64,000 nucleotides of DNA from positions 170,408-234,407 of the forward strand of contig JBAZWB010000002.1 in NCBI GenBank assembly GCA_041660605.1, written 5' to 3'. Shown piece by piece: positions 2,567 to 63,902 of this stretch. Made by a program: the position numbers and the translations under genes. Below the pieces are notes generated by a model, which searched no databases, had not been told where the DNA came from, and saw only the letters and a list, made by a program, of their open reading frames with translations. The stretch comes from Patescibacteria group bacterium (GTDB lineage: Bacteria > Patescibacteriota > Patescibacteriia > UBA10025 > JAHIVO01). Numbering within the stretch: position 1 is the first letter of the stretch; each line of letters begins with the position of its first letter.

Positions 2567-2604
2567 ACTTATAAAAAATTATGCACCTAAATTTTTGAAT
2601 AATT

Positions 2605-4062: not shown

Positions 4063-4077
4063 TAAAATTAATTTATG

Positions 4078-5643: not shown

Positions 5644-5663
5644 AATATATTATTATATGAAAA

Positions 5664-6251: not shown

Positions 6252-6269
6252 AGCTCGGGGCCTTTCGGA

Positions 6270-6833: not shown

Positions 6834-6854
6834 AAATCTATCTTCGGCTTCACT

Positions 6855-6912
6855 CAGATTAAAAAAGATTTATAAACCGAAACCCGACTTCGGACTATCA
6901 AGCTTTAGCTTG
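6855..6912. repeat. two short hairpin-forming palindromes (CCGAAacccgacTTCGG and CAAGCTttAGCTTG) immediately 5' of the HUH transposase gene
   Basis: Both inverted repeats are read directly from the sequence. IS200/IS605 ends carry subterminal hairpins that TnpA recognises. Confidence 0.4.
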
Positions 6913-6924
6913 ATAAAAAACTCC

Positions 6925-9697: not shown

Positions 9698-9732
9698 ATT
9701 ACAAAATCTTATTTATTAACCCATGCCTGCTT

Positions 9733-9830
9733 TATTTTCATATTTTTTTCACTACTCCTTTGGTGGCATCCACCTCTACTCTATCCCCATTTTTTGCCGA
9801 TTTTGTCCCTGAAGACAAGCGAAGTGCTGA
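9733..9830 (-). pseudogene. 3'-terminal remnant of another swivel-domain paralogue (encodes ...LRLSSGTKSAKNGDRVEVDATKGVVKKI*)
   Basis: The reverse complement of 9733-9806 translates to KNGDRVEVDATKGVVKKI followed by a stop. This is the same C-terminal consensus seen in the intact array genes, and no upstream body is present. Confidence 0.5.
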
Positions 9831-9914
9831 CTGAAGGGGTACAAAATCGAGTATCCCGCTGACCCCTGAAGCTGAGCCTGCCGAAGCTGAAGGGGATAGC
9901 GGGAAAAAACTGCC

Positions 9915-11006: not shown

Positions 11007-11008
11007 AA

Positions 11009-16673: not shown

Positions 16674-18374
16674 CTATTTTTCTTCCTTGGACAGATTCAA
16701 AATAATCGCTAGTGAATTAAAATCCAACAATTGCAGATATTTTTCCGTTTTACTGTTGGTATGCCGGAAGCGCAGGTTCTCGGGCGCAATATTATCCAAA
16801 TGAAGCTTCGCCTGCAAATCCAAACCCAGGCCTTTTTTCAGGTTATTAAAAGCCAGTAAAATATTATTAGTGCGATCGCCAATAGTATCAATTTTTGACA
16901 GGTTCAGTCCGCGCGTCTGCTCCAGTAATTGGCCTAGTTCCTCTCTGATACCCTCTAACAACTTTACCTGGGGCTTTTTTAATCCCTTTCCGACAGCTTT
17001 AAGCTCAGCGGCGCTTAACTTCTGCAGACTCTCCGCCGCTTTTCTATTATTAATAACCTGGGTAATTTCTCTTATTGCCGATTCCATTGATTGCCAGGCA
17101 GTCCAAAATTCGTTAACCTTTTTATCTTTTGATAATTTAGCTGCCTCATAAGCGCTATGCGCTTCCTTGGCCTGGCTGGTCAGTTGTTTCTGGACGCTCT
17201 CCAGGTCTCCAGACTTTGCATCAGGGCGTAGGCCAATTGATGCCGGGTTATCCAGGGCACTGGCTTCCACTGGAACTAAAATTTCCTGGCCGGCCTGAAC
17301 CCTCAGGCTATCCAATCGGGGATTATAGTTCACTACCTCCCCTTTATTATTAATAATTGTAGTTTCCGCTGCCTTTTTATCCTGCAAATCAACAACGTCG
17401 TCATCATCCCATTTGTCTTCATGTCTTTGATCGCTGACCCTTTGGACATTATGCCAATACTTTTTATCCTGGCGGTGTGACAACGCTTCCAGTACCAGTT
17501 CGCTGTACTCGGCATCTGCCTTTTCTCTGGCTTCAGCTTCAGTCAGGCCCTCTTCTTCCATAATTTTTTCCATTAACGCCTGCTTATTCACGCCCTTCCC
17601 TTCATCCAAATCAAGTATGCCAGCAGATATTTTACCAATAAAATCCTCTATCTTGGCCACTTGGGCTTCTGTTAGTTCTACCTGTTTCTGTGCCTCTGCG
17701 TCATCACGATGTTCCTTGGCATTACGTTGCTGCGCCTTTACCCGCTCCACCCATTCAACCAATAAATCTAAATTTTCTGCGAATGCATCAAACAATTCGC
17801 CCTGAAAATGCTCTGTTTTTACCTCCAGAAGTTTGCTCACACTTTCCTTCAGATTCCATTTTCCCACATTACTAAGCTCGCGAAAGGCTATATTGTTTTC
17901 ATCATCTGCTGCCTCTAAAAAATAATCCTGACGTCTCTGCTTCTGGACAAAAATCCGGCCTTCACGCTTTTTATTAAAATTAGCTGAAATTTCTGCTCCT
18001 TCATCTTGCCGCCAGTCATCCGTACCGCATTTACTCCATATTATCTCACTTGACTCAGGGTCAAAAGTGGTAATCCCTTTCAACCAGGCATCCTGGTTTT
18101 TTAACCCCAATTCTTCAAGACGCCTGGCGAGCATCAGTGTGCCACGCGTATCCCCAAACATATGCTTCAATAGTACCTGTGTCGCTGCTTGCGACACCAC
18201 CCCTGGCCTGATATTGTTGTTTTTGAACCTTTCAACCTCTTCCGGCTTCCGCAATAAATCCATAGCTTCTTCTGGAGAAGCCAGCTTCTCTTCCATATTA
18301 TTTACTTCCAAACTATCGCCACCTAAACCATGTTCAGAAGCCAAAATTTCGCCCCCTGGTATTTCACGGCTCAT
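16674..18374 (-). CDS. hypothetical soluble protein (566 aa) with a coiled-coil C-terminal half. Its N-terminal domain is paralogous to the C-terminal domain of the 1060-aa membrane protein
   Basis: It shares the motifs LLKHMFGD, WLKGI, QKQRRQ(D/N)Y and NVGKWNL with ORF 19762-22944. The composition is acidic and helical. Confidence 0.55.
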   Translation of the reverse strand: MSREIPGGEILASEHGLGGDSLEVNNMEEKLASPEEAMDLLRKPEEVERFKNNNIRPGVVSQAATQVLLKHMFGDTRGTLMLARRLEELGLKNQDAWLKGITTFDPESSEIIWSKCGTDDWRQDEGAEISANFNKKREGRIFVQKQRRQDYFLEAADDENNIAFRELSNVGKWNLKESVSKLLEVKTEHFQGELFDAFAENLDLLVEWVERVKAQQRNAKEHRDDAEAQKQVELTEAQVAKIEDFIGKISAGILDLDEGKGVNKQALMEKIMEEEGLTEAEAREKADAEYSELVLEALSHRQDKKYWHNVQRVSDQRHEDKWDDDDVVDLQDKKAAETTIINNKGEVVNYNPRLDSLRVQAGQEILVPVEASALDNPASIGLRPDAKSGDLESVQKQLTSQAKEAHSAYEAAKLSKDKKVNEFWTAWQSMESAIREITQVINNRKAAESLQKLSAAELKAVGKGLKKPQVKLLEGIREELGQLLEQTRGLNLSKIDTIGDRTNNILLAFNNLKKGLGLDLQAKLHLDNIAPENLRFRHTNSKTEKYLQLLDFNSLAIILNLSKEEK

Positions 18375-18394: not shown

Positions 18395-19744
18395 TTAATC
18401 GTTCTCTGAAACTAGCTTGCTGTTTTTTATATAATTCTTTGCCCAGGTAAAATTGCCTGTCTCCTGGTCGCCATAAGCTAAGCCTTCATAGCGCACGCCC
18501 ATTAACTGTCCGATTTCCACTCCGACGAGCGCTGAATCATTTTCATCAAACTCAAGTTTTTCCCTCAATAAATACTGCAATAATTCTGAAATTCCCGCCG
18601 GTGAACCAGGGTCGCTTTTAAGCGCGAAAGTAGCGCTATTTATTTCATCAGGTTTATATTGTGAAGCGTACTTTTTTTGTATATACTCCTGCACCGCGGC
18701 GTGCCAGGCCAGGTTATCGCTCAAAGCGGTCGCCAATGATCCCTGCCGAGCCAATATTTTTAAGCAGGCGATAACTTTTATTTTCTCGTTTTGCCGTGAA
18801 GCCTGCGCCAGTTCTCTTTTTACCATTTCTGGCTCGCCCTTGGTGTCGTTAACCAGCTGGTCTTCCAGGTCCAATACAACCTGTCTCTGCAGGCGGTAGT
18901 CCTGATATTTTTTCTTCAATAGTGCCAGAGGGTCTGACTGCCCGACTGGCGCTGATTCCATTACTGATTTATCAATATTTATAACTTGTGACTTGCCGTT
19001 TTTTGGCTTCATTGGTTCAAATGTCTTTTGTTTTGCTATAAGTACAAACCGTCCGTTCTGTAAATCAAAGATATTACCGTCATCATCAATCATGGTCATG
19101 GTATCTTCAATACCTTCCGGCGTTAATGACGGGATGCCTAGTCTCTCAAAAAGATGAAAAAGTTCTTTGAGCTTTTTCTGTTCAGTATAGGGTAGTTTTT
19201 TAAAATTAATATTATCAGAAAAATACTGCGCTTCTTTTAATTTGTCCACGCCCTCTGTCCCTACTTTCCGGAAATAATCGCGAAACCAATTTTTTACCAC
19301 GCTGGGCACCTGTTCATTGTTTATTACCAGAGAACCCGGCACTCTCTGGTTATTACGTAATAATGCCTGGCGCAGGCGCTCCTTAAAAGCATCTCTCTCG
19401 CTAATATAGATCTGCACCAGTCTCCCAATTACAACGTCCATTAAATCAAAATCTTCGGAGCCAAGCGCATCATAAATCCTTTGCTCAAAAAATGATTCTA
19501 CTTCTTTTTCCGAATAAAACTGCAAGCCGGCAAACCGCAGTTTGGATATCCATAATGAATAGCTGCGCTCTAATTCGTTCATCGCTCCCTCCGGTCTGAT
19601 CTGCAGGGTTTTATCGAGAAATTCGGCCAGCTGATAAGTCCGCCGCTCAACAAACCTGACATAATCATAAGCTTCGCTAAAAACCCGCTTGGCGAATTCC
19701 GGCTCCAGAAGCTTTTGCCTGGTTGTATTTTTCAGATCAATCAT
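18395..19744 (-). CDS. hypothetical protein (449 aa)
   Basis: Complete ORF in the same operon-like minus-strand run. No recognisable motif. Confidence 0.5.
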   Translation of the reverse strand: MIDLKNTTRQKLLEPEFAKRVFSEAYDYVRFVERRTYQLAEFLDKTLQIRPEGAMNELERSYSLWISKLRFAGLQFYSEKEVESFFEQRIYDALGSEDFDLMDVVIGRLVQIYISERDAFKERLRQALLRNNQRVPGSLVINNEQVPSVVKNWFRDYFRKVGTEGVDKLKEAQYFSDNINFKKLPYTEQKKLKELFHLFERLGIPSLTPEGIEDTMTMIDDDGNIFDLQNGRFVLIAKQKTFEPMKPKNGKSQVINIDKSVMESAPVGQSDPLALLKKKYQDYRLQRQVVLDLEDQLVNDTKGEPEMVKRELAQASRQNEKIKVIACLKILARQGSLATALSDNLAWHAAVQEYIQKKYASQYKPDEINSATFALKSDPGSPAGISELLQYLLREKLEFDENDSALVGVEIGQLMGVRYEGLAYGDQETGNFTWAKNYIKNSKLVSEND

Positions 19745-22979: not shown

Positions 22980-25900
22980 TTAAGTCGGATCGTAAGTTAT
23001 ATAAGTCTGTAAATAATCACAGTCGTCTCCGTCCGCGTTCCACCGGCAATCGCCTGAAACGCAAACTCCCGCCGCAGTCACGCCGCACCAGTCCCAATTA
23101 TCAACAATTTTAATTCTCACGCCAGTACCGTTAGGATCAGCGGGGTTATATGGCGTAAAAGGCTGCGCGAAATTATAAGTATGGGTCAAATAAATTGTAT
23201 TTGAGTCGTACTTGCCCTGGATGATAAAGTTTGAACCGTCGCCCCAGTTGACCTCAATGCGTTTGAGGGGCTTCTGCTCTTTATCAACATTGACATTAAA
23301 TGCCAGGTGAACTTCGCCGGTCCATAACGACAAACTAACCGGATTCAGTGGATCAGGCTCGGCCATAGTCGTTTGCGAACGGCCCACCCTGATGTCGCTG
23401 ACCACCGGCGGCATGCCGCAGTAATCACCGGGATCATCGCCGAGATTATCAGGGCGCGTGGCAACATTGCACACAGGCATATCGTTATACCCAAAGTAAT
23501 GCTTGCCGCTGATGTCATATCCATTTATCCAGTCATCCATAAAAGAACTGCCAACGCCAATTTTAATATACTGCCTTTGCTGGGAATCCCATCCCCAGCC
23601 GGCCACCGGCTTGGCGAACAAACGTTTTATGGTGTTAATGGCATCTGTCCGGGTCCTACCGGAGGCAAAAACACCGGCGCCCTCCAGGACGCATCTATTG
23701 TCCGCGCCAGTACACTGGGCATTTTCCGTACAACGGATTTTAGTATCTTTCAGGCAAAAACCCGAACCTAAGCCAACGCAAATGCCGTCATTGAGATCCA
23801 TATTCCCGTCATTATGCGCTAAGCATTTGCTAGTTAAATCATTTGACGAGCAATCGTTGGTTTCGTCCCAATTGCATCCCCTGTCCCAGCAATTGCCTAC
23901 GCATGAATATGGGCTGCCGGCCCGGGCGTTGTTGCTGGTTAGCGGATTTTCACGCTGCTCAACTGGTATCATAGGCCAGGAAGTCGGATCCAGTTCGTTG
24001 CGGCCTTGCGATGTGCTGGGATTTACAAAAGCGCCAAAAGGTTTGTAGTCCTGCTCATATTGATACTTCAATCCTTCCGGCACGTCTGGCGGCGGAGGAT
24101 TATCCTGAAGTATATAAGTCGAACTGGAACCGGTACGGCTCGACCAGGCTATCGGCTCTTCAGATAAATCAACTGCCTGGGCGATGGCACTGCAGGATTC
24201 CTTCAGATAAAAATTCAAATGAAATGCTCCATACTCATCCTTTCCTGCTGTTGAATCTTCACCAATAGTTCGGATTTCTTTCAATTTGCCGGTATTATTA
24301 TCAAATATTATCTGCAGCCACATGCACTGATACCCAGAATTTTCGTGGCAGGTGTCAATTGGATATAACCGCCATATCCTGTCACTGCCGCTAACCACCC
24401 TGTCCACTCTCCCCGCGGCGGCGCCACTGTCGCATTTTAATGGCGAAGAATTTTTATTACAGGCATAACCAGCCGTGGTCATTGTCTCTGGCGTGAAATA
24501 TCCGCTATATCCGCCCCAGCCAAAACTTGCATTAGTGACCCACTCCAATTCTACCCTGGATATGTCATCTTCGGTAATATTGCTGGTAATTTTAGAATCA
24601 TAATAGCTATTTGTACTGCTCCAATTGCAATCTGCACCAGGAGGATTGCCAGGCCAGATGCTCGGGGGGTATGGCTGACATGCATCGTCGCCGCCGGTTT
24701 GCACTATCCAGGAGTTTGTATATACTGTACTCGCAAATTCATCATCATGCCATTGAGAGGCAGTCAGCGGCTGTATATAATAATTATCACCAGTAGTCGC
24801 TGCAGGAAAAGTGCCCTCGTTCGTGGTAGTTGATAAGGTCATGCTCGGCTTATTGTTTCCCGGCGCTTCCATACAATAATACAAAGGCCGTCGGCCGGAG
24901 TATTGCGTTGTTTTCAGATTGCTGAAAATGTCAGTCTCACCGGAAATCAGGTCAACCGGCCACCAATTCAGGCAGTACTTGGAATTATTGGGATCCGATT
25001 CAATGCAATAGCCATACCAGCCGTTGAAAGTAGTATTATTTTCGTCAGTATAGGTGCAGTATGGCGCTTCAGCGTTCGGATACATGCGGCAGGACCGGGC
25101 CAGGTTGGTCTGCGTATAGCAATAGCCGCTAGGACAGTTATCGTCCGTTTCGCAGTAATTACCGTCATTGGCGCCGCCGATGCACTTGCGCTCCTGCACC
25201 TGCAGGACCGGCTTCATCGATACGTCATCCAAATAAAACTCCAAATCAGTGAACGGGGTCAGCAAAGAATCACGTACATAGATGATGTTCAGGCGGGCAT
25301 TGACAAAATCTTTAGCGTCGTCATTGCCGTCATCATCAACGCCAGCCGTAATCGGACCCAGAGCGAATTTCTGCCATTCCAAAGACGGCTTGATCCTGTC
25401 AAAAGTCATATAAGTTCCGTTTGGCGCGTTTATTTGATTGCCATCATTATCTAAATATTCCAGCTGCACGTAGATATAATCATCCGGCCGAAACACCTGG
25501 TTGGTTTTTATCTTGAAAGAGACCGCGTACTCTTCGCCCTTGAAAACCCTGGTCTGCAGATCATAGGTCGCGCCGGTATAGTTGCCCGCGGCCACCACGT
25601 GCCCAATATTATTCTCATCCAGGTTGGCGTTCGGCGAGGGTATCTGCCCGCTAGCCGCCTCTTCGCCCCAGAGCATTACTGGCGCGGGCAAGGAATTTGG
25701 AGGCAATATGGGATTCTGCCGTGCGGACCACAAACCGATAGACTGGGTGGGGGTTAGTTTGGAGAATTCTATTTCCAGCGGGGCGTCAGCTTGGCCGCTT
25801 TCATCAACCGCGGACAGCACTTTGCTTAATTCCGCGTTTTTGAAATAACTGCTGTCGCCAAAATCCCCATAACTGATTATATCGCCTTGCGGGGAAGTAG

Positions 25901-28900
25901 TGCCGACTTCTTCCATGGCCTGATAAGGGAAGTCACCCTCAGTCAGCTGAGGTTCCGGAGAGCAGGTGCCATTGTCCACGCAATCGCCGCCCGGGCAATC
26001 GCCCCCGACGGTACAAATCTCATCGGCACGAACGCCGCCGCCGCAACGCATGCAATCAGCATCAATATCGCAAACGTAATTCATATTTTTGCTGCAGCGC
26101 TTATCCCAATCCATGCCGGCCAAAACCATGCCGGAATAATTTTTTATCTTATCGGCAAAAGCAGGCGAGGAATAAGTGTCATTCACCCGTTCATACTGGA
26201 CTTCATCGGTACAGACGCCGGTCTGCTCATCCATTTCATCACAGAGTTTCAGCTTCAGGCACAAATCCTGATTCTGCCCGCTTTCATTAGTGGTAATCAA
26301 TTTATCGGCGCACTCCAGCCACTTGTTGCACACCCTGTCCTTCTTCGCCTGAATGACGCTGTTAGAGTCACAATTGGTCTCCAGATATTGCGGCAGAGGA
26401 GGATCGCCTCCGGAAAAAATATAAGCAACTATATAATTTATATCATCCATATCCACATCACCATCATTATCAGCATCTCCCCGCTCAACCGGAGTTATTG
26501 TTCCTGTTCCATTCAGATAAGCACCAATAAGCTGTGGGTCGCCAATATTTATTTCATTATCATTATTGGTGTCGCCCCGCATTATCCTGGAATTTCGCGG
26601 TATAGTGCACAGAGCGGGGGACTCCTCATTTTTCGTTTCAGTAGCGTCGTAATTCAGGGTTGGCACGCTGGTGTCATTGAACATGAGGCAGCCGCTCTTG
26701 CGATCGACTAAATTATTGCAGCTGGATTTATCCACGTTGCCTGACAAATAATAATATGAATTGCAATCATAAGTTAAGACTCCGTCTCCGCCGCCGTCAG
26801 CCAGATAAACATCACAAGGCTTCGGATGGTCAGGATCGGAATAATCCACCGGATTTTCTGGATCGCGGTATTCCGTACAGCCGGTAGCGGTCGCCGGACA
26901 GGCGCCCACCCAGCCAGCCGCCGGCTGAGCTACGATCTTATCGCGCGGTACGCATAAATCAGCGCCAATAGACGGCCAATCATCGCAATCATTGAATTCT
27001 TGATTATTCAGGGCAGTATTGCAGGCCTGTCCTTTATTATGGCCTCCGACGCAGACACCGTTGGTCACCGGGCAATTAGCCGTCCCCTCGGTAGTGCCGC
27101 TCTGATACCAGCCGGCCACGCTCTGACCCGGAACTTTTGTAAAGTTACAAACCGCCTTGCCCGGATCTTTGAAATAATATTTTGCTCCGCTGGATGAAGT
27201 GTACTCATTGCAGCTGCTGTTTTCGTAATAGCACATGGTCTGGCCGTAATTATCCGGCTGATTAGCCAGATATGCGTCACTGAAAGACGAAACGCTGCCA
27301 TCGGCTTCTATGACCGGCTTGCCCAGGCGCTCACAGCCTACGGCGGTAGCGGAACAGCTTTTCTCCGGATCATTAACAACGAATATCATGCTGTCATTGG
27401 CCACGCCGGTTTTTACCTGCCCAGTGATGTAGCGCGGCAATGGAGATGGACCGCCGTTATGCAAAAATTGATAAAGATAGGTGGAATCTTCCTTGCTAAG
27501 ATTTCCGGAATTATTCAAATCAGCTATTTCAGCCGGGTCAGGGCAGCCAACTGCCGAATTAATACAAATATCCAATAAGGTCTGATCAGCATCATCAACA
27601 GTCCCATCTTTATTAATATCACCCCTTAAGAATCTGTTTACATTGGCCACGGTATAATCGGAAGCGCTGGGACCGACAGTATTCTTAGTGTCAATCATCG
27701 CCTCACATCCAACTTTGTCGTCTCGGCAGAGGCGCGTAAATGATTTCAGATAATGGATAGTGTTTGACCTGTCTTTATATTGATCGCAATTTTCATAACC
27801 GGAGCATTCTTTATATGAATCCTTAATCAAATAAGTGTTTTCATACACCTCATTTATTATAATATTATCAATGTAAAAGGCGTTGGTGCCGAAAGCCACC
27901 AGCTGTACAGCGCTTAAATCCGTGCCCGCTGGTACATATACCGGACCCAGATGGAACTGATTCCAATCTTCGGCTCCGGCCACCGCTTGTCCCGGAAAAA
28001 CCAGCGGGGTGGCGGTATTGAGGGTAAAGGTGATTGGCGTGTCCGCCGTAGCCTTGGCCCAGAAGCTGACTTCATAGGATTTATCAGCGGTCATGCCAAG
28101 GGCCGTGCCGACATTAGCTATCGCGCCGTTATTATTTATAAGCATGGAATGCCCGCCGACATTGACGGATTCGTTGCTGTAGGTAACATTGCCGATCCAC
28201 GGAGAGATTGTGCCATTTTCAAAACTTTCGCTATACACCTGGCGCACGTTATCGCCGGCATTTCCTTTATAAGAACGGCAGCCATTCTGACTGGCAGAGC
28301 AGGAAACGCTCTGTTTGGGAATCAAATGATATATCGCGCTCGCGCCGTCGATGGAGTTGCGGTAAGCATTACAATCCGCGGAAGCGAAAATGACGCGCGA
28401 CTTGAGATAATAATATGTCAAACCGTTGTCATCATAAAATTCCGTACAGTCGGGATTTACTCCGACTTCGGCCGCCAGGCAGGTCGCCGCTAGGTGTGAC
28501 TCAAGAAATCCGTCGCCATTATCATCAAAATCCTTGCCATCAACACAATTAGGCCACCTATTTTCCGGAGCGAGAGCGGAATTTTCTGCCATCATATTAG
28601 TACATGGCCCGAATTCTCCGGGATTTGTCAGATCAGGCCAGTTGCTTTGTTTCAGAGAATATTTTTTCAGCTGATAGCCGAATTCATCAGAACCTTCCCA
28701 GGCATAAAACGTCTTAATTGATGCATCGTCTTCCTGCACGCACAGGCGGATATTGCTGTAATATTCCTTGCCTTCTCCGCCCTGGCCTACGGCATCCAGA
28801 TTCGTATATTCTTCGCAGCCCACGGCTGAAGCGTTGCAGCTCTGGCCGGTGGTGGCGATGAAGGAAACCGGATCCCTGGCCGGCCGCTGCGGTACATGTT

Positions 28901-31900
28901 CTATGGGCATCTCGCGATAAGCCCGGCATCCGACAAATTCCGCCGGGCACTGGTCGCAGGAATCAGGATTATTAGGATCGCAATTATTAGGATCAGAAAT
29001 AATGCCGCTGACCTTTTGGTTTGAGGTCAGGGAAGTGTATAATTCGCAGCCAACCTCATTGGCTGAACAAAATAAAGCATACTCGCCGCAGGCCTGATTG
29101 TCGGACTGCGAATTTCCGGTACAAGAAAGGAAATCGGGGGCGATGCGCAAATTAGTTTTTGGGTTGTCCTCATAGGCGATATAATTGCTGGACGCGCCTT
29201 CTTGCACCATTATATCGTCGATGATCACATCGCAGGCGATATCATCTGGCCGGGTAATCAGAGGCACGATTCCCTGCATCATCCAGGCTGAACCCCATTG
29301 TCCGGTCGGTATGCTGGGATAAGTAATAGTATAAACATAACGCCGCCACTCATCCGAAACATTTATTGAGGACGGATGGACCTCTGAATTTGCGGCGTCA
29401 ATCGGGCGCATTAAATCAATGTCTAATTGACCGGCATTTCCCGTACAATCAGGATCATCCGCCGCTCTCTTGGCATACAAAGATAAAGTAAAAGTCCGGT
29501 GATCCGTCAGATATCCCGTGGAGACGATTGTCGGCGAACCGGATGACGTATCGCCTATATAGAGAATCGCAGAGTCGTTAGAGCCTGGGTACATTTTGAT
29601 CCGGGCGGCTGTCGAGCCTTCATACGCGTCTGAAACGGCCACCAGGCTGTCGCCACAGGCCGACCCGGCACAATTCTTATTATAGTTCCAGTCATCAAAT
29701 GAGTCAGGCAAAGCGGTATCTTTAATGCCGTCATCACCGGCTACGCCTTTGCCAAATTGTTCAAGTCCGCCATTATAAATCAAATTCGCTCCAGCGCCGT
29801 ACTGCCGGATCAGCTGAGTGCATCCTTCTGATGAGGCATCGCAGGCCGTAATGCTATTATTAAAACTGATTTTACCGCCGGTGCCCAGCATAGTCGGAGG
29901 TTCGCCGGTGCAGTTCCATTTTCCGGTGGCGGCATTCCAGTCCTGGCAGTACCAGCTGCAGCCGACATTTGAAGAATTGCAGCCGTCTGTGTTGGTGGTG
30001 CTGGTCAGATAAGCTACCTCATCGCCGGTGCTGTTGGCCAGGGACTGGCAGCTGTTATACTGGGATTCGCAAGACTCGCTGTTAAATTTCCAGATCGGCT
30101 TTTCCTCCACGCAGTAACCGAACTTTTTGCAGGTGCCGTCGTCATTCTCCGCCAGGCACATCTGTTCGTCAGCGCAGTAATTATCCTGGCGCTGCACCAT
30201 ATTATTGGCCACGTCCTTCAGATCTACGGTACCGTCTCCGTTTGTATCTTCGCTCCTGATCGCCTGCGTTGATACCACCTTTTCTCCCGATCCTTCGCGC
30301 TTACAGAAAATTTCCGGGGATTTCAGCACCCAGTTCGGATCCACCAACCGGTAGAACGGTGAGATAGGATTATCGTATTCAGCGATTAGATCACTAAGCG
30401 TATAGTCCTGTTTGGCATAATCGCGGATATATTTCGCGGCTAGTTCCCAGCCTACAGGAATAATCCGATATTTGCGTAAAATTACCAGACTTCTGTATGG
30501 ATAGCCGTTATAATACTCCGGCTGGGTGCCGTCGGAATAAAATCCAAAAATTTTATTACTATCATCTTTGGCATCCAATAATCCCTGGTCAATCGCCTGC
30601 TGTACTGTCAGTTCCTGCTCAATGGCCGTCTGAAGGCGGTTATCAATCACGCAGGTATCAGGCGTGGAGTTCTCCGTGTCCGGACAGCTGGCCAGAGTTG
30701 GCAGCACTTCCTCTGCTCCGCCGGTGGAATATTCAGTCTTTTGCAAATCAGAAAAAAGCAGCTTCGCGGCAGTAATCCCAGGCGAAGTTCCGCCAAAGAT
30801 ATCGGCAAATAAGCTGGTGGATGATTTTGTCCCGCCTTTTGAGGCAAAAGGATTCCAGCCCTGGTTAATGAGACGATCCAGAAGTTTACTGGCTAAAGTA
30901 TTAGTAAAAGTACCAACCGCGTCGGCGACCATTGATCCTGTTTGTACTAACGATTGGCTGATAGATTGATTGAACAAAACTCCCTGCGCCTGCTCGATAA
31001 ATTTAGCCGGTGTTTTATTTTCTTTGGTGACCGCGGTAGTGGCCGGCTCCATCTCTCCGGACAACGACTGCGTGAATTTTTTATTATCTTCCGCTTTAGC
31101 CGCTTCCTCGTCCGCTTTGCGCACTATTTCCAGATAAGCACCGATCTCCGTCGCTTCAGGATTGAAACTCTTGGAAAATTCGAAAAGGCGCTGCTTGGAA
31201 GTGGCATTTACATTATCAATTATTTCAGAGAGGGTGCATTTGGCGGAAACGTCCTGCGGTCCGCCAAAAGTTGCTTCCCTGGCCCAGGTCTGCAGTTTGA
31301 TCTTAGTGGTAATATCTTGTGGTTCGCACAGACTGAAATCCTTGATGCACTGCGGCGCACCGGTTCGCGGAGCGAACTCATAATTTTTATATTTTTCCGG
31401 TACCTGTCCTGACCCCTCCCATGAAGGGCAAGACTGATTTTTTCCGCATTCGAGCAAGATACAGCCGCGTGAGATACAAAACTGTTTGGCTTCCACGCTA
31501 CTGTCACATTCAGTAAAACAAGCACCCGATCCTTGTCCGAAGGCACAAGGAGAAGACGGAATGGCATTTTTTGGACAGAGCAACAGCGGCGCATAGCTCT
31601 TGCAGTCATTATCACTACCGCAAGATTGATAGTTATGACCCTGGCAGGTACCACTGGACCAGGAATTTGCCATACTATCCAGGAAATCGCCAGCTGCGGC
31701 ATCGGCGGTTTGTTTCAATAAAGTGGAAGGATTAGTGACAAAAAGCGGTTTCTGGCCTGGTTTGCCAGTGGCGATTTTTACCGCATAGTTATAAGCTAAA
31801 TTATTTAAGTAGTTCTTTAATATGTTTTTAAAAGCGACATCTGAGGCTGTCTTTATAGCCTTAGACACGGCTTCCATCAGCTTGGCGGCGGGATTAGCCA

Positions 31901-32057
31901 CCACGGTGGTGAGGGTAATATCGCCAATGCCAAAAATCGCCAATGCCGGTTTTGGCTGCAGGGCGATTGGCAGGGATATCTGCAATACAAAAAACATCAT
32001 GGCGCCAAAAATTGCCCACCTTTTGCCTCTGCTTATTTTCGTCCCCTTATTGAACAT
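22980..32057 (-). CDS. giant Cys-rich cell-surface protein (3025 aa) with dockerin-like Ca-binding repeat pairs and CBM4/9-like beta-sandwich modules
   Basis: A single 9-kb ORF with an N-terminal signal/anchor (RWAIFGAMMFFVLQISLPIALQP). Dockerin-type repeats are present (GDINKDGTVDDADQTLL...ADLNNSGNLSKED and GDTNNDNEINIGDPQLIGAYL...GDADNDGDVDMDDINYIVAYIFSG). NGGLE/FENG...W segments resemble carbohydrate-binding modules. Cys clusters occur throughout. Confidence 0.7.
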   Translation of the reverse strand: MFNKGTKISRGKRWAIFGAMMFFVLQISLPIALQPKPALAIFGIGDITLTTVVANPAAKLMEAVSKAIKTASDVAFKNILKNYLNNLAYNYAVKIATGKPGQKPLFVTNPSTLLKQTADAAAGDFLDSMANSWSSGTCQGHNYQSCGSDNDCKSYAPLLLCPKNAIPSSPCAFGQGSGACFTECDSSVEAKQFCISRGCILLECGKNQSCPSWEGSGQVPEKYKNYEFAPRTGAPQCIKDFSLCEPQDITTKIKLQTWAREATFGGPQDVSAKCTLSEIIDNVNATSKQRLFEFSKSFNPEATEIGAYLEIVRKADEEAAKAEDNKKFTQSLSGEMEPATTAVTKENKTPAKFIEQAQGVLFNQSISQSLVQTGSMVADAVGTFTNTLASKLLDRLINQGWNPFASKGGTKSSTSLFADIFGGTSPGITAAKLLFSDLQKTEYSTGGAEEVLPTLASCPDTENSTPDTCVIDNRLQTAIEQELTVQQAIDQGLLDAKDDSNKIFGFYSDGTQPEYYNGYPYRSLVILRKYRIIPVGWELAAKYIRDYAKQDYTLSDLIAEYDNPISPFYRLVDPNWVLKSPEIFCKREGSGEKVVSTQAIRSEDTNGDGTVDLKDVANNMVQRQDNYCADEQMCLAENDDGTCKKFGYCVEEKPIWKFNSESCESQYNSCQSLANSTGDEVAYLTSTTNTDGCNSSNVGCSWYCQDWNAATGKWNCTGEPPTMLGTGGKISFNNSITACDASSEGCTQLIRQYGAGANLIYNGGLEQFGKGVAGDDGIKDTALPDSFDDWNYNKNCAGSACGDSLVAVSDAYEGSTAARIKMYPGSNDSAILYIGDTSSGSPTIVSTGYLTDHRTFTLSLYAKRAADDPDCTGNAGQLDIDLMRPIDAANSEVHPSSINVSDEWRRYVYTITYPSIPTGQWGSAWMMQGIVPLITRPDDIACDVIIDDIMVQEGASSNYIAYEDNPKTNLRIAPDFLSCTGNSQSDNQACGEYALFCSANEVGCELYTSLTSNQKVSGIISDPNNCDPNNPDSCDQCPAEFVGCRAYREMPIEHVPQRPARDPVSFIATTGQSCNASAVGCEEYTNLDAVGQGGEGKEYYSNIRLCVQEDDASIKTFYAWEGSDEFGYQLKKYSLKQSNWPDLTNPGEFGPCTNMMAENSALAPENRWPNCVDGKDFDDNGDGFLESHLAATCLAAEVGVNPDCTEFYDDNGLTYYYLKSRVIFASADCNAYRNSIDGASAIYHLIPKQSVSCSASQNGCRSYKGNAGDNVRQVYSESFENGTISPWIGNVTYSNESVNVGGHSMLINNNGAIANVGTALGMTADKSYEVSFWAKATADTPITFTLNTATPLVFPGQAVAGAEDWNQFHLGPVYVPAGTDLSAVQLVAFGTNAFYIDNIIINEVYENTYLIKDSYKECSGYENCDQYKDRSNTIHYLKSFTRLCRDDKVGCEAMIDTKNTVGPSASDYTVANVNRFLRGDINKDGTVDDADQTLLDICINSAVGCPDPAEIADLNNSGNLSKEDSTYLYQFLHNGGPSPLPRYITGQVKTGVANDSMIFVVNDPEKSCSATAVGCERLGKPVIEADGSVSSFSDAYLANQPDNYGQTMCYYENSSCNEYTSSSGAKYYFKDPGKAVCNFTKVPGQSVAGWYQSGTTEGTANCPVTNGVCVGGHNKGQACNTALNNQEFNDCDDWPSIGADLCVPRDKIVAQPAAGWVGACPATATGCTEYRDPENPVDYSDPDHPKPCDVYLADGGGDGVLTYDCNSYYYLSGNVDKSSCNNLVDRKSGCLMFNDTSVPTLNYDATETKNEESPALCTIPRNSRIMRGDTNNDNEINIGDPQLIGAYLNGTGTITPVERGDADNDGDVDMDDINYIVAYIFSGGDPPLPQYLETNCDSNSVIQAKKDRVCNKWLECADKLITTNESGQNQDLCLKLKLCDEMDEQTGVCTDEVQYERVNDTYSSPAFADKIKNYSGMVLAGMDWDKRCSKNMNYVCDIDADCMRCGGGVRADEICTVGGDCPGGDCVDNGTCSPEPQLTEGDFPYQAMEEVGTTSPQGDIISYGDFGDSSYFKNAELSKVLSAVDESGQADAPLEIEFSKLTPTQSIGLWSARQNPILPPNSLPAPVMLWGEEAASGQIPSPNANLDENNIGHVVAAGNYTGATYDLQTRVFKGEEYAVSFKIKTNQVFRPDDYIYVQLEYLDNDGNQINAPNGTYMTFDRIKPSLEWQKFALGPITAGVDDDGNDDAKDFVNARLNIIYVRDSLLTPFTDLEFYLDDVSMKPVLQVQERKCIGGANDGNYCETDDNCPSGYCYTQTNLARSCRMYPNAEAPYCTYTDENNTTFNGWYGYCIESDPNNSKYCLNWWPVDLISGETDIFSNLKTTQYSGRRPLYYCMEAPGNNKPSMTLSTTTNEGTFPAATTGDNYYIQPLTASQWHDDEFASTVYTNSWIVQTGGDDACQPYPPSIWPGNPPGADCNWSSTNSYYDSKITSNITEDDISRVELEWVTNASFGWGGYSGYFTPETMTTAGYACNKNSSPLKCDSGAAAGRVDRVVSGSDRIWRLYPIDTCHENSGYQCMWLQIIFDNNTGKLKEIRTIGEDSTAGKDEYGAFHLNFYLKESCSAIAQAVDLSEEPIAWSSRTGSSSTYILQDNPPPPDVPEGLKYQYEQDYKPFGAFVNPSTSQGRNELDPTSWPMIPVEQRENPLTSNNARAGSPYSCVGNCWDRGCNWDETNDCSSNDLTSKCLAHNDGNMDLNDGICVGLGSGFCLKDTKIRCTENAQCTGADNRCVLEGAGVFASGRTRTDAINTIKRLFAKPVAGWGWDSQQRQYIKIGVGSSFMDDWINGYDISGKHYFGYNDMPVCNVATRPDNLGDDPGDYCGMPPVVSDIRVGRSQTTMAEPDPLNPVSLSLWTGEVHLAFNVNVDKEQKPLKRIEVNWGDGSNFIIQGKYDSNTIYLTHTYNFAQPFTPYNPADPNGTGVRIKIVDNWDWCGVTAAGVCVSGDCRWNADGDDCDYLQTYITYDPT

Positions 32058-32098: not shown

Positions 32099-32941
32099 TT
32101 ACTGGGTTTGAAAATTTTGAGCCAAGCTTTCCAGGTATATTTGTTTGAGAGTTGCGTCGTCCAATTGATTCAATGTATCTTCGGGCACCCCATTCTGTAC
32201 CAGTAATGAACGGATTTCCGCGATGGTAAGATTGGCCAGCTGTTCATAAGTTACCCCGCCCGTATCCTGAGTATTCGTATTGGTCGCGGAGTTAGTATTG
32301 GCATTACCGCCTTCTTCTTCCAGTATTTGCTGGTAAGTGGCAATCAAAGTTTCGTCATCCAGCTGGTTCAGGCTGTCTTCAGGCACGCCGGCATTCAGTA
32401 GTACATCCCTTAATTGCTGGGTGGTCAGGTTGCCATAGACTGAATTAGTGTTGGTTGGCTTCAAATCAGTTAAAAATCCACTGTTGGTATTACTGGAATT
32501 TGTGCTTGAGGTATTGCTATTGGTTTCGTTGCCGCAGGCAGTGCCCTGTGGGCAGTTTGGATCAGAGCCCTGGTCTATTTCAATTTTATCGCTGATTTTA
32601 TCACTGTCGCTATCCGATAGATACGGGCTGGTGCCAAACACGTATAATTCATCATAATCAGACAGGCCATCCTGATCGGTATCCTTATCGCGCAAATTCT
32701 CCAGCGCTGCCAGTGAATTAGTATTAATCCCCAGCTCATCGGCGTTAACGCTGAAATTAGCCTCTGAATTCTCAGAATTGGCTATTTTTTTAATTTCAAA
32801 GGGGCTGTTTAATTGCCATATTATATACCAACCTCCGAAACCGACTGATAATAAAGCGATAACCGATAGCAAGAGCAATCCTTGTTTTCTTAAACGCTGC
32901 TCCTTTTTATCATTAAAAATTGGAGTTTTTTCCTGTTCCAT
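32099..32941 (-). CDS. membrane-anchored protein (280 aa) with an Asp-rich Ca-binding segment and two internal repeats (..NAGVPEDSLNQLDDETL.. / ..NGVPEDTLNQLDDATL..)
   Basis: It has an N-terminal TM helix (LLLLSVIALLSVGFGGWYIIW) and DTDQDGLSDYDE...SDSDSDKISD thrombospondin-type-3-like loops. The ~34-aa internal duplication is read directly from the translation. Confidence 0.5.
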   Translation of the reverse strand: MEQEKTPIFNDKKEQRLRKQGLLLLSVIALLSVGFGGWYIIWQLNSPFEIKKIANSENSEANFSVNADELGINTNSLAALENLRDKDTDQDGLSDYDELYVFGTSPYLSDSDSDKISDKIEIDQGSDPNCPQGTACGNETNSNTSSTNSSNTNSGFLTDLKPTNTNSVYGNLTTQQLRDVLLNAGVPEDSLNQLDDETLIATYQQILEEEGGNANTNSATNTNTQDTGGVTYEQLANLTIAEIRSLLVQNGVPEDTLNQLDDATLKQIYLESLAQNFQTQ

Positions 32942-33027
32942 ATATTGAAGCTGATTTTTGTTTTTCCAGTGGCTGGAGTAATAATTTTACCTCTCCATTA
33001 TATCATAATATGTCAAATCTGTCAAAC

Positions 33028-36360: not shown

Positions 36361-36467
36361 TACTCCTCTCCCCGCGGGAGAGGGACTAATAACACGAACC
36401 CTCAGGTAATTAATCAGGCATTCCTCTCCTTGAGGAAAGGAACTGAAGGTGAGGTGTTATTTACAAA
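36361..36467. repeat. copy A of a ~107-bp palindrome-containing repeat (REP/MITE-like). It overlaps the last 17 codons of the DUF559 gene
   Basis: About 80% identical to copy B at 36803-36918. It contains the hairpin-forming inverted repeats CTCTCCCCGCGGGAGAGGG and TTCCTCTCC..GGAAAGGAA and the shared tail GAAGGTGAGG..TTAT..ACAAA. Confidence 0.6.
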
Positions 36468-36824
36468 CCTGTATATTTCTTCCAATACACCATCAATATT
36501 TTCATATACTTCATTAGCCCAAACTCTGATAACCGAGTAACCGCGTCGCTTGAGATAAAAATCACGTTGCCTGTCTCGCTCTATTTGCTTGGGAAAATTA
36601 TGACCGCCACCATCAACTTCTAAAACCAATTTGTGCTCCATGGCACAGAAATCAGCAATATACGGCCCGATTGGGCACTGACGCCGAAATTTAATATTCA
36701 TGAATCTTCTATTCCTTAATAATGACCACATTATTGCTTCCGTCTGGGTTTGCCTTTTTCTAAGGCTACGAGCGATTTTTGTCATTTTTTTAGCCATTGA
36801 ATACCTCTCCTGGCCTCTCCCCAT
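36414..36824 (-). CDS. DUF559 domain protein (Vsr/restriction-endonuclease-like fold). The true start is probably Met10 at ~36797
   Basis: The DUF559 core is present in IMWSLLRNRRFMNIKFRRQCPIGPYIADFCAMEHKLVLEVDGGGH...RDRQRDFYLKRRGYSVIRVWANEV. The first 9 codons of the annotated ORF lie inside repeat copy B. Confidence 0.7.
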   Translation of the reverse strand: MGRGQERYSMAKKMTKIARSLRKRQTQTEAIMWSLLRNRRFMNIKFRRQCPIGPYIADFCAMEHKLVLEVDGGGHNFPKQIERDRQRDFYLKRRGYSVIRVWANEVYENIDGVLEEIYRFVNNTSPSVPFLKERNA

Positions 36825-36918
36825 GGGAGAGGGATTAATACATTCACCCTTGGGCTATTAATCAGTCCTTCCTCTCCCTCCGGGAGAGGAACCGAAGGTG
36901 AGGGGGTTATACTACAAA
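36803..36918. repeat. copy B of the ~107-bp palindrome-containing repeat. It begins exactly at the leuS stop codon and extends to the DUF559 start
   Basis: It contains CTCTCCCCATGGGAGAGGG and TTCCTCTCCCTCCGGGAGAGGAA inverted repeats. It is a direct repeat of copy A, and the pair brackets the DUF559 gene. Confidence 0.6.
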
Positions 36919-39900
36919 ATTTATTAATCGGCCTGGCACAAAAATCGTTTTTTTCGGCTGCTTGCCTCCCAGCCATTTTTTAATCTTTTCACTGGCCAGT
37001 GCCCTCTCCTGCGCCTCTGTTTCAGAAATTCCGGCTGGCACAGTAAACTGGTCGCGCACCCTGCCGTTCACCTGCACCACGAGGGTTATTTCTGCTTTAA
37101 CAATCAATTTCGGATCAAATTCTGGCCATTTTTCATTAAAAATACTCTTCTTATGACCTAACTTTTCCCACAATTCTTCGGCCAAATGCGGGGCAAAAGG
37201 CGATAAAAGCACTAAAAATGTTTCATATGCTTCACGTGGAACAATTTCCTCGGAAAACCATTCATTACTGGCCTCCATAAAATGGCTGACACAGGTGTTA
37301 AATTTAAAATTTTCAATATCATTAGTAATAAACTTAATCAGGGTATGCAATGATCTTTTCCCCTTATTAAGCTCGACATCGGCCACATTTTCACCGGCTT
37401 TATAAAGCCTATCTAAAAACCGGCGCACACCAATAATCCCCTGCATATTCCACGGCTTGGCGTCCTCAAACGGCCCCATGAACATTTCATACATGCGCAT
37501 GGTATCCGCGCCGTATTTTTCTATTACCTCGTCGGGATTAACGACGTTACCGCGCGACTTGGACATCTTTTGCCCGTCTTCTCCGAGGATTAATCCCTGA
37601 TTTTTTAATTTTTTAAACGGCTCATCTCCGCATTTCTCCGGCACCGCTTTGATATCAAATAAAAACTTGTAAATAAACCGCGCGTACAGCAGATGTAAAA
37701 CTGCGTGCTCTGCCCCGCCGATATATAGATTAACCGGCAGCCACTTCTTTAATTTCTCAGGATCAGCCAGTTGCTTATCATTATGCGCATCACAGTAGCG
37801 CAGGAAATACCAGTTTGACCCGGCCCATTGCGGCATGGTATTGGTCTCGCGTCTGGCCGGACCCCCGCACTGCGGACATTTGACGTTTACCCATTCTTTA
37901 ATATTGGCCAGCGGCGATTCGCCTGTGCCGGTGGGCTCGTATTTTTTTACGTCAGGAAGCAGTACCGGCAAATCTTTCTCCGGAACAGGCACCTGGCCGC
38001 ATATCTCACAATGTATGATCGGTATTGGTTCACCCCAATACCGTTGTCGGCTAAATAGCCAATCGCGTAGTTTGTAATTAATCGTAGCTTGAGCAACTGA
38101 TGAATTTGACGAGCTTTTCGGAAAGAATGGTAATATTTCCGGTAATGATGTCACACCTCCGGTAGATTCGCTGAAATGCGATTTACCTGGCATACAATGA
38201 ATCTCGGCTTCTGGAAGGTTTTCCTTATAATATGCCATGCTTTCGGGAGGAACGTATGGATCATTATCCGAGTGGATAATTATGAACCGTTTTGCCAGCG
38301 AGCGTATTTTTGGCCAATTAAAATTTTGGGCGCTGCTCATGTTCTTGACCGCGTCCCAATCGGCTTGGGGATACTTTTGCTTGAGTTGCGGCCAATATTG
38401 TAATGGATTTGTCGGCGCAACCAAAATAACCGTATCAACTTTTTTTTCTAATTGTTGTAGGTGAAATAAAATCGAAGCGCACCCTAGGCTATGCCCAACC
38501 AATACGGAATTTTCATTGATTCGCTGGTCGAACTGTCCAAGATACTCGTCCCATGAATTTAAAACCGGGTGGCCTGCGCCAGGCATAGTCGGGACTATCG
38601 TCTCCCAGCCGGCTTTATTAAGCTCCTCTTTCAGCCAAGGAAACCAATTTTCCCGTTTATGACCGCTGATCCCGTGAACGATAAGGCAGGCATTATGGAC
38701 CTGTTCTGTTTTGGAATTTAGCCACTCCACGATTTTTTTCCGGCCTTGTTCGCTGGAAATGCCGTTGAACTGCCCGGAATTAACCATCGTGCCGTCGCCG
38801 GTCCAGCATTGGCTCTCTAGATCCGCTTCTTTCACGCCCCAGGCAGACGCACTGCCCAGAGACGGATAGGTTTTCGGCATTACCGACGGGGGTTTGATGA
38901 CCTGGATAATTGGTAATTTAAACTTTTTGGCGAATTCAAAATCACGTTCGTCGTGAGCGGGGACAGCCATGATCGCTCCGGTGCCGTAAGTTGATAAAAC
39001 GTAATCCGCGATCCAGACCGGTATTTTCGCGTTATTAACGGGATTAATGGCGTAAGCGCCGGTGAACACCCCGGTTTTTTCCTTGGCTAAGTCTGTTCTT
39101 TCTAAATCAGACTTGGCGGCAGATTCTTTTTTGTATTTTTCCACAGCTTTAAATTGTTTCTCGGTCGTGATCAAATCAACCAGCTCGTGCTCTGGTGACA
39201 AAACCATATAGGTAGCACCAAACAACGTGTCAGGACGGGTAGTAAACACGGAGATAACCTTGAACTTAGAACTTAGAACTTCTGATAACTTACGACGCGG
39301 TTCTTTGTTCCCAGTCCAAAGTTCAAAGTTAACAATCGCTCCTTCCGACCGGCCAATCCAATTCCGTTGCAATGTTTTAATAGATTCCGGCCAGTCCAAA
39401 TCGTCCAAGCCGTGCAATAGCCGCTCAATGTATTTTTCATCGGTAATTTTCACCAGCCACTGCTTGATTTTCTTTTTCACCACCGGTGTGCCGCAACGCT
39501 CGCATTTGCCGTTAATTACCTCTTCATTAGCCAGACCGGTTTTGTCTTTTGGACACCAGTTAATGGGAGCGTAACTTTCATAAGCTAAGCCATGTTTGAA
39601 AAGCTGCAGAAAAATCCACTGCGTCCATTTATAATATTCTGGATCAGAGGTGATGACTTCACGTTTCCAGTCATAGGAAAAACCCAGGCTTTTTATCTGC
39701 CGGCGCATGTTATTAATATTTTTTGCGGTGGTAGTAGCTGGATGTGTACCGGTTTTGATGGCATAATTTTCTGCCGGCAGGCCAAAAGAATCAAAGCCCA
39801 TTGGGTGCAGGACATGATAACCCTTCATCCTATAAAACCGCGCGACAATGTCCGAAGCGGTATACCCCTCGGGGTGTCCGACATGCAAGCCCTGGGCGGA

Positions 39901-40047
39901 AGGATAGGGGAACATATCCAAAACATAAAATTTGGGAGACGAGCTGTTTTCTTTCGTGTCCCAAATTCCTTCCTGCTCCCATTGCTTCTGCCACTTTTTT
40001 TCTACCCGACTGCTGTCGTATTTTATATTCATAACTGATTGAATCAT
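36907..40047 (-). CDS. leuS: leucine--tRNA ligase (LeuRS) carrying an inserted alpha/beta-hydrolase domain (1046 aa)
   Basis: The HIGH motif is HVGHPEGY and the KMSKS motif is QKMSKSRGN. The CP1 editing domain is present ([19 protein letters not shown] ... [15 protein letters not shown]), as is the [19 protein letters not shown] segment. The protein is ~190 aa longer than typical bacterial LeuRS because of an insertion at aa ~450-640. Confidence 0.9.
38127..38700 (-). other. alpha/beta-hydrolase (YdeN/RBBP9-like serine hydrolase) domain embedded in LeuRS between the CP1 editing domain and the catalytic core
   Basis: The segment [14 protein letters not shown]...[13 protein letters not shown]...[12 protein letters not shown]...MPGKSHFSE has an HG oxyanion motif, the GHSLG nucleophile elbow, and Asp and His in the canonical triad order. 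It is in frame and flanked by LeuRS sequence on both sides. Confidence 0.75.
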
Positions 40048-63526: not shown

Positions 63527-63560
63527 AAAAAACAGTTCATCTTTTATTGAACTGTTTTTT
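63527..63560 (+). terminator. rho-independent terminator after the TrmB-family gene
   Basis: AAAAAACAGUUCA-ucuuuuau-UGAACUGUUUUUU gives a perfect 9-bp stem with flanking A and U tracts, so it is potentially bidirectional. Confidence 0.55.
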
Positions 63561-63868: not shown

Positions 63869-63902
63869 GAATCTAATTTCCGTCTGAGTCCCGCTTTAAT
63901 TA

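Follow-up and report, generated by a model that had tools for sequence, protein, structure and literature searches.

A giant cysteine-rich exported protein of Patescibacteria with optional dockerin cassettes, encoded beside a VirB6/TrbL-like gene in or near a type IV secretion neighbourhood

A 64,000-nt stretch of a Patescibacteria group bacterium genome (assembly GCA_041660605.1, contig JBAZWB010000002.1, positions 170,408 to 234,407 of the forward strand; hereafter the window) contains one very large open reading frame (ORF) whose product carries dockerin repeats together with carbohydrate-binding-module (CBM)-like domains, and the question raised by this locus is what such a protein does in a bacterium of this kind. 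A first-pass annotation, made from the sequence alone, had described it as a very large, secreted, cysteine-rich surface protein whose dockerins might mediate attachment, for instance to a host surface. The gene was found to encode an exported, disulfide-rich and modular protein belonging to a large, unnamed family of Patescibacteria, and to share an operon with a VirB6/TrbL-like gene inside or beside a type IV secretion system (T4SS) neighbourhood. From this arrangement we infer, with about an even chance of being right, that the giant protein acts outside the cell as a stalk or adhesin in concert with the T4SS of Patescibacteria. No account of the giant family or of its link to the T4SS was found in the literature searched.

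An exported, cysteine-rich member of a large Patescibacteria family

The giant protein has 3025 amino acids (aa) and a mass of ~330 kDa. An identical protein is deposited in NCBI (MFA6098899.1 / MFA6496471.1, on a 960,449-bp contig) under the title 'MAG: dockerin type I domain-containing protein [Patescibacteria group bacterium]' (MAG, metagenome-assembled genome), and the closest homologue (P0002, 2979 aa) is 49% identical to it across 100% of its length. Since the same protein has been deposited, P0002 aligns over its full length and the ORF is intact, a frameshifted or chimeric assembly, which the first-pass annotation had raised as a possible artefact, was ruled out, as was a pseudogene.

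According to a hydropathy scan, the sole hydrophobic 19-mer stretch of the protein lies at aa 13–35 and is followed by ALA and then I; this AxA site is conserved across the family, with A40 nearly invariant. Cysteine accounts for 120 residues (4.0%), 78 of which are kept in at least 80% of 24 homologues, and mean identity across the same homologues was 0.79 at Cys positions versus 0.35 at other positions. A C-x6-GC-x2-[YLMF] motif recurs in ten copies in the scaffold between the modules. This pattern of cysteine conservation fits structural disulfides in an exported protein, and the initial description of a very large, secreted, Cys-rich single ORF was borne out.

A word-indexed search returned 67 homologues of 1700–3700 aa; those bearing names were all from Patescibacteria, Kerfeld-, Komeili- and Magasanikbacteria among them. 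With aa 440–760 as the query, exhaustive phmmer gave 1123 cluster representatives (clustered at 50%), 1075 of them at E <= 1e-10, and the searched core was always found at approximately residues 330–780 of proteins of 2400–3800 aa, fragments excepted. Conservation was highest in the N-terminal region, especially at aa 441–640 (mean identity 0.57), and in Cys scaffolds at ~966–1268 and 1405–1470. It was lowest in an insert at aa 133–250, in both dockerins, in the outer CBM-like modules and at aa 2401–2650.

The N-terminal 640 aa, which include the variable Cys-rich insert at aa 133–250 and the motifs GQKPLF, GYPYRSLVILRKYRIIPVGWELAA and DPNWVLKAPE, matched no Pfam or NCBIfam family and no solved fold. 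Within this region, AlphaFold2 (AF2) gave a confident fold for aa 450–640 only, a core with invariant polar residues R528, E538 and D573; the AF2 models were built from 30 sequences, which probably limited confidence outside the best-conserved domains.

Presence and absence of the dockerins across the family followed a different pattern. Dockerin 1 is a cassette of ~70 aa whose site is fixed, with VGCEAMIDTxN on one side and VVNDPxKxC on the other; it was present in 16 of the 25 closest members (doubled in one of the homologues, P0013) and lacking in the other nine, which have a linker of 47–55 aa there. Dockerin 2 was confined to the query and P0002 (2/24), while the 22 remaining aligned members carried other sequence at the site, in 19 cases a linker of 38–48 aa. 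Many family members had no Dockerin_1 match at all. Because of this pattern, we regard the dockerins as accessory inserts in a conserved scaffold and not as its defining feature; judging from the alignments, the conserved features are the Cys-rich scaffold and the 640-aa N-terminal region, for which no relative is known.

Modules carried on the scaffold

Scanning the whole giant protein against Pfam revealed exactly two families, CBM_4_9 (E 6e-13, 49.7 bits) and Dockerin_1 (E 3e-11, 43.7 bits), with two stretches each. Modules were placed by a Pfam scan of ten segments of the protein, the gathering scores being 22.9 bits for Dockerin_1 (PF00404) and 25.9 bits for CBM_4_9. On segment 1420–1900 Dockerin_1 reached 47.5 bits, again in two stretches.

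A regular expression for the Ca-loop motif D-x-[DN]-x-[DNS]-...-[DE] matched exactly five times, at residues 604, 1480, 1513, 1829 and 1861. The last four are the dockerin loops, all of which fit the duplicated F-hand pattern (22-residue repeat, D/N at positions 1, 3, 5 and 12, a hydrophobic residue at 8 and a helix after the loop), with loop 1513 having S at position 5. For residues 1477–1532, in dockerin 1, PDB gave an alignment with the 2y3n_B dockerin (E 3e-5) and weaker ones with those of Xyn10B/XynY. Its AF2 model comprises a loop-helix at 1489–1500, a short helix at 1508–1512 and a second loop-helix at 1522–1533 (predicted local distance difference test, pLDDT, 65–79), and with moderate confidence shows the expected dockerin topology. 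Dockerin 2 was poorly modelled (pLDDT ~30) because a single aligned homologue carries it.

The first-pass annotation had proposed at least two pairs of dockerin repeats and one further single repeat. All the peptides it quoted are present, the five Ca-loop motifs are the five strings it gave as repeats, and the assignment agrees with Pfam, the 2y3n_B match and the motif scan. Helix pairing, the feature by which it would have told dockerins from generic calcium loops, was seen at moderate confidence in the model of dockerin 1; that of dockerin 2 gives no verdict.

One explanation of these modules would be a stand-alone surface protein, its dockerins plugging into cohesins of its own or of a host in a cellulosome-like manner and its CBMs targeting polysaccharide. 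Both dockerins score above the Pfam threshold, dockerin 1 aligns to cellulosomal dockerins in PDB and has a fitting predicted topology, CBM22-like modules are present, and a cultivated Saccharibacterium has a dockerin-domain protein among its essential proteins (PMC10633639). However, Pfam detected no cohesin or glycoside hydrolase among the 43 ORFs of the window, as the first-pass annotation had also noted, nor in the Pfam lists of orthologous loci (for cohesin, the neighbour genes in 7 related loci), and no catalytic family (glycoside hydrolase, carbohydrate esterase or polysaccharide lyase) was found in the giant protein by Pfam or NCBIfam. Cellulosomal proteins usually carry dockerins as terminal modules, whereas those of the giant protein are internal loop inserts, and dispensable ones (cassette 1 lacking in 9/25 and cassette 2 in 22/24 orthologues). 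Compared with cellulosomal enzymes carrying a type I dockerin and CBM22 (C. thermocellum Xyn10B; PDB 2y3n, 1dyo, 4xup), the giant protein thus shows homology at the level of modules (Dockerin_1, CBM_4_9, the PDB match and the fold), but has neither a catalytic module nor a cohesin in the window, its dockerins are internal and optional, and it belongs to a reduced-genome Patescibacterium. Since the dockerins are optional and cohesins and enzymes were not found, the cellulosome-style reading is weak; we consider it improbable, and it could not be upheld.

Among the CBM-like modules, module 1 was the best supported, with CBM_4_9 at aa 1273–1347 scoring 31.2 bits, above the gathering score, and a confident beta-sandwich at aa 1269–1404 (pLDDT ~92 in an AF2 model of aa 1255–1900). 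Foldseek aligned this fold to CBM22 xylan-binding modules 4xup, 4xuo and 1dyo (template modelling score 0.63–0.69, E 1e-5 to 1e-6), to receptor-binding domain RBD1 of C. difficile CDTb (9mui; template modelling score 0.71, E ~1e-6) and to iota toxin Ib (9jsl; E 3.6e-7). Each of the 50 Foldseek matches listed was a CBM22 or a binary-toxin chain, with no dockerin chain among them. For module 2, CBM_4_9 at aa 2159–2231 fell below the gathering score (22.8 bits) and a weak Mep72 match was seen at aa 2159–2209; module 0 (aa ~766–965), which falls in a variable region of the family, had no Pfam match. Both were tied to module 1 solely through profile-profile comparison (hhalign, 96%, E ~1e-9). Because these two regions relate to module 1, we count three CBM-like modules, in line with the CBM-like segments initially reported; they are putative sugar-binding (lectin) modules.

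The C-terminal module had no Pfam match, and among PDB entries a 16-sequence profile matched designed Ig domains alone, and weakly (E 0.005), a hint that it is possibly Ig-like. A 'PKD-like' assignment of this module was rejected, Pfam being empty and the PDB profile having returned designed Ig domains alone.

The binary-toxin matches bear on another explanation, namely that the protein is a secreted enzyme or toxin-like effector, either a VirB1-like wall or glycan degrader or a binary-toxin-like receptor-binding/translocation protein, with a catalytic domain in its N-terminal core. The core at aa 450–640 is the best-conserved part of the protein and combines invariant polar residues (R528, E538, D573) with a confident fold, the CBM-like modules are similar to CDTb and iota toxin Ib receptor-binding domains, and CBMs usually accompany enzymes. 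The likeness to clostridial binary toxins, which use a CBM-like Ca-binding beta-sandwich for host-surface recognition, is nevertheless confined to that sandwich, no pore-forming or heptamerisation domains having been detected in the giant protein, and the locus has separate M23/LysM and SLT-containing proteins for wall remodelling. We consider an effector of either kind improbable.

Operon structure and the T4SS neighbourhood

The giant gene is the second of five minus-strand genes, encoding the 280-aa, giant, 1060-aa, 449-aa and 566-aa proteins and separated by gaps of 41, 35, 17 and 20 nt (Table 1); the 1060-aa gene begins 35 nt past the giant stop. The promoter ahead of the first gene (33025..32997) is the sole 12/12 sigma-70 consensus match within 18.5 kb. 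The 280-aa protein, whose TSP3_bac match reached 24.1 bits against a gathering score of 25, is conserved at the same position in five other loci.

The 1060-aa protein appears VirB6/TrbL-like by its layout and by a weak profile match. Pfam TrbL (PF04610, E cut-off up to 10) was matched by one of six orthologues (E 1.5e-4), the window protein itself being unmatched, and a profile compared with PDB sequences returned nothing relevant; proteins with this layout form a recognised class of 'extended VirB6' proteins (PMC12857230). Over 404 aa the 566-aa protein shares 38% identity (E 2e-76) with the C-terminal domain of its 1060-aa neighbour, and in the 449-aa protein no signal or membrane segment was seen when its sequence was judged by eye. 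The '16.7–32.9 kb surface cluster' of the first-pass annotation is thus a real operon, but not all of it is surface: one product is a polytopic VirB6/TrbL-like protein, one shows no signal and one is a paralogue of a hydrophilic domain.

Table 1 Coordinates of the giant gene, its modules and the surrounding operon in the window
Feature	Position in window	Strand	Remarks
Giant ORF	22980..32057	(-)	ATG start, 3025 codons, no internal stops
Signal peptide, aa 1-40	31938..32057	(-)	Basic n-region, sole hydrophobic segment, AxA site
N-terminal family-defining region, aa 41-640	30138..31937	(-)	Helical segments and alpha/beta core at aa ~450-640
Lone EF-hand/F-hand-type Ca loop DTNGDGTVDLKD, aa 604-615	30213..30248	(-)	Motif scan; present in close homologues
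CBM-like module 0, aa ~766-965 (NGGLEQF...)	29163..29762	(-)	hhalign versus module 1: 96%, E 1.7e-9
CBM_4_9/CBM22-like beta-sandwich module 1, aa 1269-1404	27846..28253	(-)	Pfam, AF2, Foldseek
Dockerin cassette 1, aa 1477-1535	27453..27629	(-)	Two F-hand loops, helix after each
Dockerin cassette 2, aa 1826-1885	26403..26582	(-)	Best Pfam stretch 1828-1880
CBM-like module 2, aa ~2091-2290	25188..25787	(-)	hhalign versus module 1: 96%, E 1.1e-9
Conserved C-terminal module, aa 2891-3025	22983..23387	(-)	L.F....D..Q.PL..I.VDWGDG ... DNWDWCG
Sigma-70 promoter	32997..33025	(-)	TTGACA-17-TATAAT with TG; in 86-nt gap between ksgA and 280-aa gene
280-aa protein, first operon gene	32099..32941	(-)	N-terminal membrane anchor, invariant TSP3-like Ca motif, 2 Cys
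Putative extended VirB6/TrbL-like protein, 1060 aa	19762..22944	(-)	~7-8 transmembrane segments in aa 18-351, ~700-aa hydrophilic domain
449-aa protein	18395..19744	(-)	No Pfam match; after VirB6-like gene in most loci (hidden Markov model)
566-aa protein	16674..18374	(-)	Free-standing paralogue of hydrophilic C-terminal domain of 1060-aa protein

Gene order was shared by five homologue loci (L001–L005), in which Sua5, MFS, KsgA and a small protein are followed by the giant protein, a polytopic protein of ~900–1290 aa and a protein of ~340–500 aa. In L002, L004 and L005, PrgI (VirB3), TraC-like and VirB4 genes come directly after the ~450-aa gene, L004 adding a T4SS_pilin gene, and in L003 PrgI lies ~9 kb downstream. 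When an alignment of the VirB6-like protein was scanned against one genome per species, at least 535 relatives were obtained, those listed being records titled Patescibacteria or MAGs with generic or evidently wrong labels. Loci were counted from hidden Markov model (HMM) scans of the best 80 of these at least 535 species-level loci, that is, those closest to the query and not a random sample. Of the 57 loci in which 8 kb or more of upstream sequence was available, 50 had a giant homologue on the same strand upstream of the VirB6-like gene; of the 41 with 7.5 kb or more on the downstream side, 34 had PrgI, TraC-like and VirB4 there; and of the 33 with both flanks, 22 had all four. A Cys-rich ORF stands at the flank edge in some of the seven loci without an upstream giant homologue (e.g. 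L025), so the upstream rate of 88% is probably an underestimate. A median of 180 nt separated the giant and VirB6-like genes, a figure that counts in the part of the ORF segment ahead of the start; the gap is 35 nt here.

In this genome VirB4 (P0225) is encoded on the same contig and strand, starting ~30.4 kb downstream of the giant stop. Upstream of it are a 460-aa gene, PrgI and TraC-like, and downstream a T4SS_pilin + SLT gene, RadA and RecG. The protein with the double T4SS_pilin and SLT match has 452 aa and is encoded at 14938–16296 of locus L088, ~3 kb downstream of VirB4 and ahead of RadA and RecG. A recG/radA context of the T4SS has been reported for class ABY1 (PMC12102498), and the same context is seen here. 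The operon is the upstream module of the chromosomal MPF-FATA-like T4SS neighbourhood that typifies Patescibacteria of the Uhr-, Kerfeld-, Falkow-, Komeili- and Magasanikbacteria type.

The giant/VirB6-like operon is separated from the PrgI–TraC-like–VirB4 module by an array of phosphoenolpyruvate (PEP)-utilizer paralogues, ten of them in tandem in the window (1001–16530, minus strand) and at least 12 in the genome, the array continuing to the left of the window into L088 (1–3061). The paralogues are 358–521 aa long and 25–60% identical, and each ends in a 'mobile' phosphohistidine domain with a conserved His (TCHAAI/TSHAAV); a HAD hydrolase and a separate PPDK_N gene come after the array. An IS200-like Y1 transposase (PF01797, E 1.4e-7; 6270–6833, minus strand) lies inside it. 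Similar arrays occupy the same place in the close relatives L006, L008, L009, L017, L020, L052, L064 and L074 and are absent in most loci, and the array may be an inserted block, consistent with the internal transposase.

The synteny could also be read as that of a general Patescibacteria surface adhesin or envelope scaffold which is independent of the T4SS and owes its position to conservation of the ksgA region. Gene order continues into the upstream housekeeping genes, the T4SS core is ~30 kb from the giant gene here, is not seen within 10 kb in L001 or in 7 of the 41 loci, and large Cys-rich proteins exported by candidate phyla radiation (CPR) bacteria have been proposed to serve attachment with no T4SS link (PMC4736985). 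On the other hand, the giant gene keeps its place next to the VirB6/TrbL-like gene even in loci where the other T4SS genes are displaced, the operon is separated from ksgA by its dedicated consensus promoter, and the PEP-utilizer array looks secondary, given the transposase inside it and its absence from most loci. The CPR proteins (Anantharaman et al. 2016, PMC4736985), compared here by description only, share with the giant protein a signal peptide, size, high Cys content and a proposed role in attachment, but were described in Peregrinibacteria as a class by composition (~7% Cys, mean 1655 aa), for which neither a family nor a T4SS context is defined, whereas the giant protein is a member of a defined orthologous family whose architecture and synteny are fixed. 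Independence from the T4SS is the main rival reading, possible in our view, although on the unlikely side.

Several other features of the window were noted as well. The leucyl-tRNA synthetase (LeuRS) gene (36907–40047, minus strand) encodes an inserted alpha/beta-hydrolase (Ser_hydrolase) domain at aa 455–639; of its orthologues, that in L002 has a NUDIX match instead and those in L001, L003 and L004 have neither domain. A DUF559/REase_MTES_1575 endonuclease-like gene (36414–36824, minus strand), located between LeuRS and a 156-aa gene, is probably a mobile insertion because it is absent from orthologous loci L001–L005. A second large protein of 1446 aa (52866–57206, minus strand) with FG-GAP repeats and CarboxypepD_reg may be a surface or adhesion protein. 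Lipoprotein signal peptidase (Peptidase_A8) and PP2C-type phosphatase domains are combined in one ORF (51100–52362, minus strand), and three tRNA-Ala genes (GGC, CGC, CGC) stand in a row at 63560–63976 (minus strand), the middle one scoring 34 bits against the Rfam tRNA model.

A proposed role in host contact

If the giant protein is an extracellular stalk or adhesin working with the T4SS, it would be exported by Sec and stabilised by disulfides, and its conserved N-terminal 640 aa would tether it to an envelope complex, e.g. through the VirB6-like protein or a small anchor protein. The Cys-paired beta-hairpin scaffold, with its ten C-x6-GC-x2-Y motifs, would form a rigid extracellular stalk, on which lineage-variable modules, namely the three CBM22-like lectin sandwiches and the optional Ca-dependent dockerin cassettes, would touch the host cell surface so that the secretion machine could act on the host. 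Attachment to another cell's surface, as suggested by the first-pass annotation, is a reasonable function, but the dockerins do not define the protein, being optional cassettes (16/25 and 2/24).

A number of observations weigh against this proposal. The tie between the giant protein and T4SS components comes from gene context, and the VirB6 homology of the 1060-aa protein from one weak Pfam match in six orthologues together with topology. If its signal peptide is cleaved, the giant protein shows no evident anchor, and a motif scan found no LPXTG-like sortase motif in it; release, or wall binding by other means, would be possible. The T4SS core is non-adjacent in this genome and its closest relatives, with the array of PEP-utilizer paralogues in between, and L001 has no T4SS gene inside 10 kb. 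The upstream order is also conserved, through LeuRS, Sua5, MFS and KsgA, and part of the synteny, counted as it was among close relatives of the query, may reflect a frozen chromosomal region and not a shared function.

What is known of Patescibacteria provides a setting for a host-contact protein. Southlakia epibionticum cannot grow epibiotically without its T4SS, and the dockerin-domain envelope protein SEML1_0315 is essential too; in the one genetically tractable Patescibacteria species, essential components include the T4SS and several glycan-binding envelope proteins (PMC10633639). Patescibacteria T4SSs are MPF-FATA-like, usually without a relaxase and with ksgA near virB4; VirB6 homologues are scarce, and an HMM survey detected no PrgB-like adhesin in Patescibacteria (PMC12102498). 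PrgB, the aggregation substance of pCF10 and an example of the surface adhesins of Gram-positive conjugative T4SSs, is likewise a large exported protein encoded with an MPF-FATA-type T4SS and is proposed to hold donor and target cell together, and PrgI/VirB3, TraC-like/TrsD, VirB4 and VirB6-like genes occur in both systems. The two proteins nevertheless have no sequence or domain similarity: the giant protein lacks Pfam adhesin domains and LPXTG, is three times larger and Cys-rich, and carries CBM and dockerin cassettes.

A further parallel, by description only, is offered by the 'dockerin-type' giants of Omnitrophota (West-Roberts et al., bioRxiv 10.1101/2023.11.21.568195), exported proteins which, like the present one, come from ultra-small, probably host-dependent bacteria and which combine dockerin/EF-hand Ca sites with CBM-like beta-sandwiches, adjoin a conserved secretion locus and are proposed to attach to host or prey. 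These exceed 30,000 aa, are highly repetitive, bear TSP3 repeats and lie beside a locus resembling a type II secretion system, whereas the protein described here has 3025 aa, its conserved scaffold is not repetitive, it carries no more than two dockerins and its neighbourhood is that of a T4SS.

We put forward more tentatively, and with clearly less than even confidence, that the family may be the missing host-contact stalk or adhesin of the essential Patescibacteria T4SS, docked on and co-transcribed with the extended VirB6-like protein. It would then represent a new kind of T4SS subunit, whose swappable cassettes would set host specificity.

A dockerin was already named in the database annotation of this protein; added here are the recognition that the protein belongs to a large family without a name, the finding that its dockerins are cassettes, and the T4SS context of the operon. 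Most of the giant protein, including its best-conserved 640 aa, has no annotated family or fold, which makes it a target for structure determination, and the cassette content of the family could serve as a marker from which host range might be predicted in metagenomic data. Much of bacterial diversity belongs to Patescibacteria, which apparently live attached to host cells; a dedicated survey had found no adhesin in their T4SSs (PMC12102498), and the giant family is a concrete candidate for the host-recognition element.

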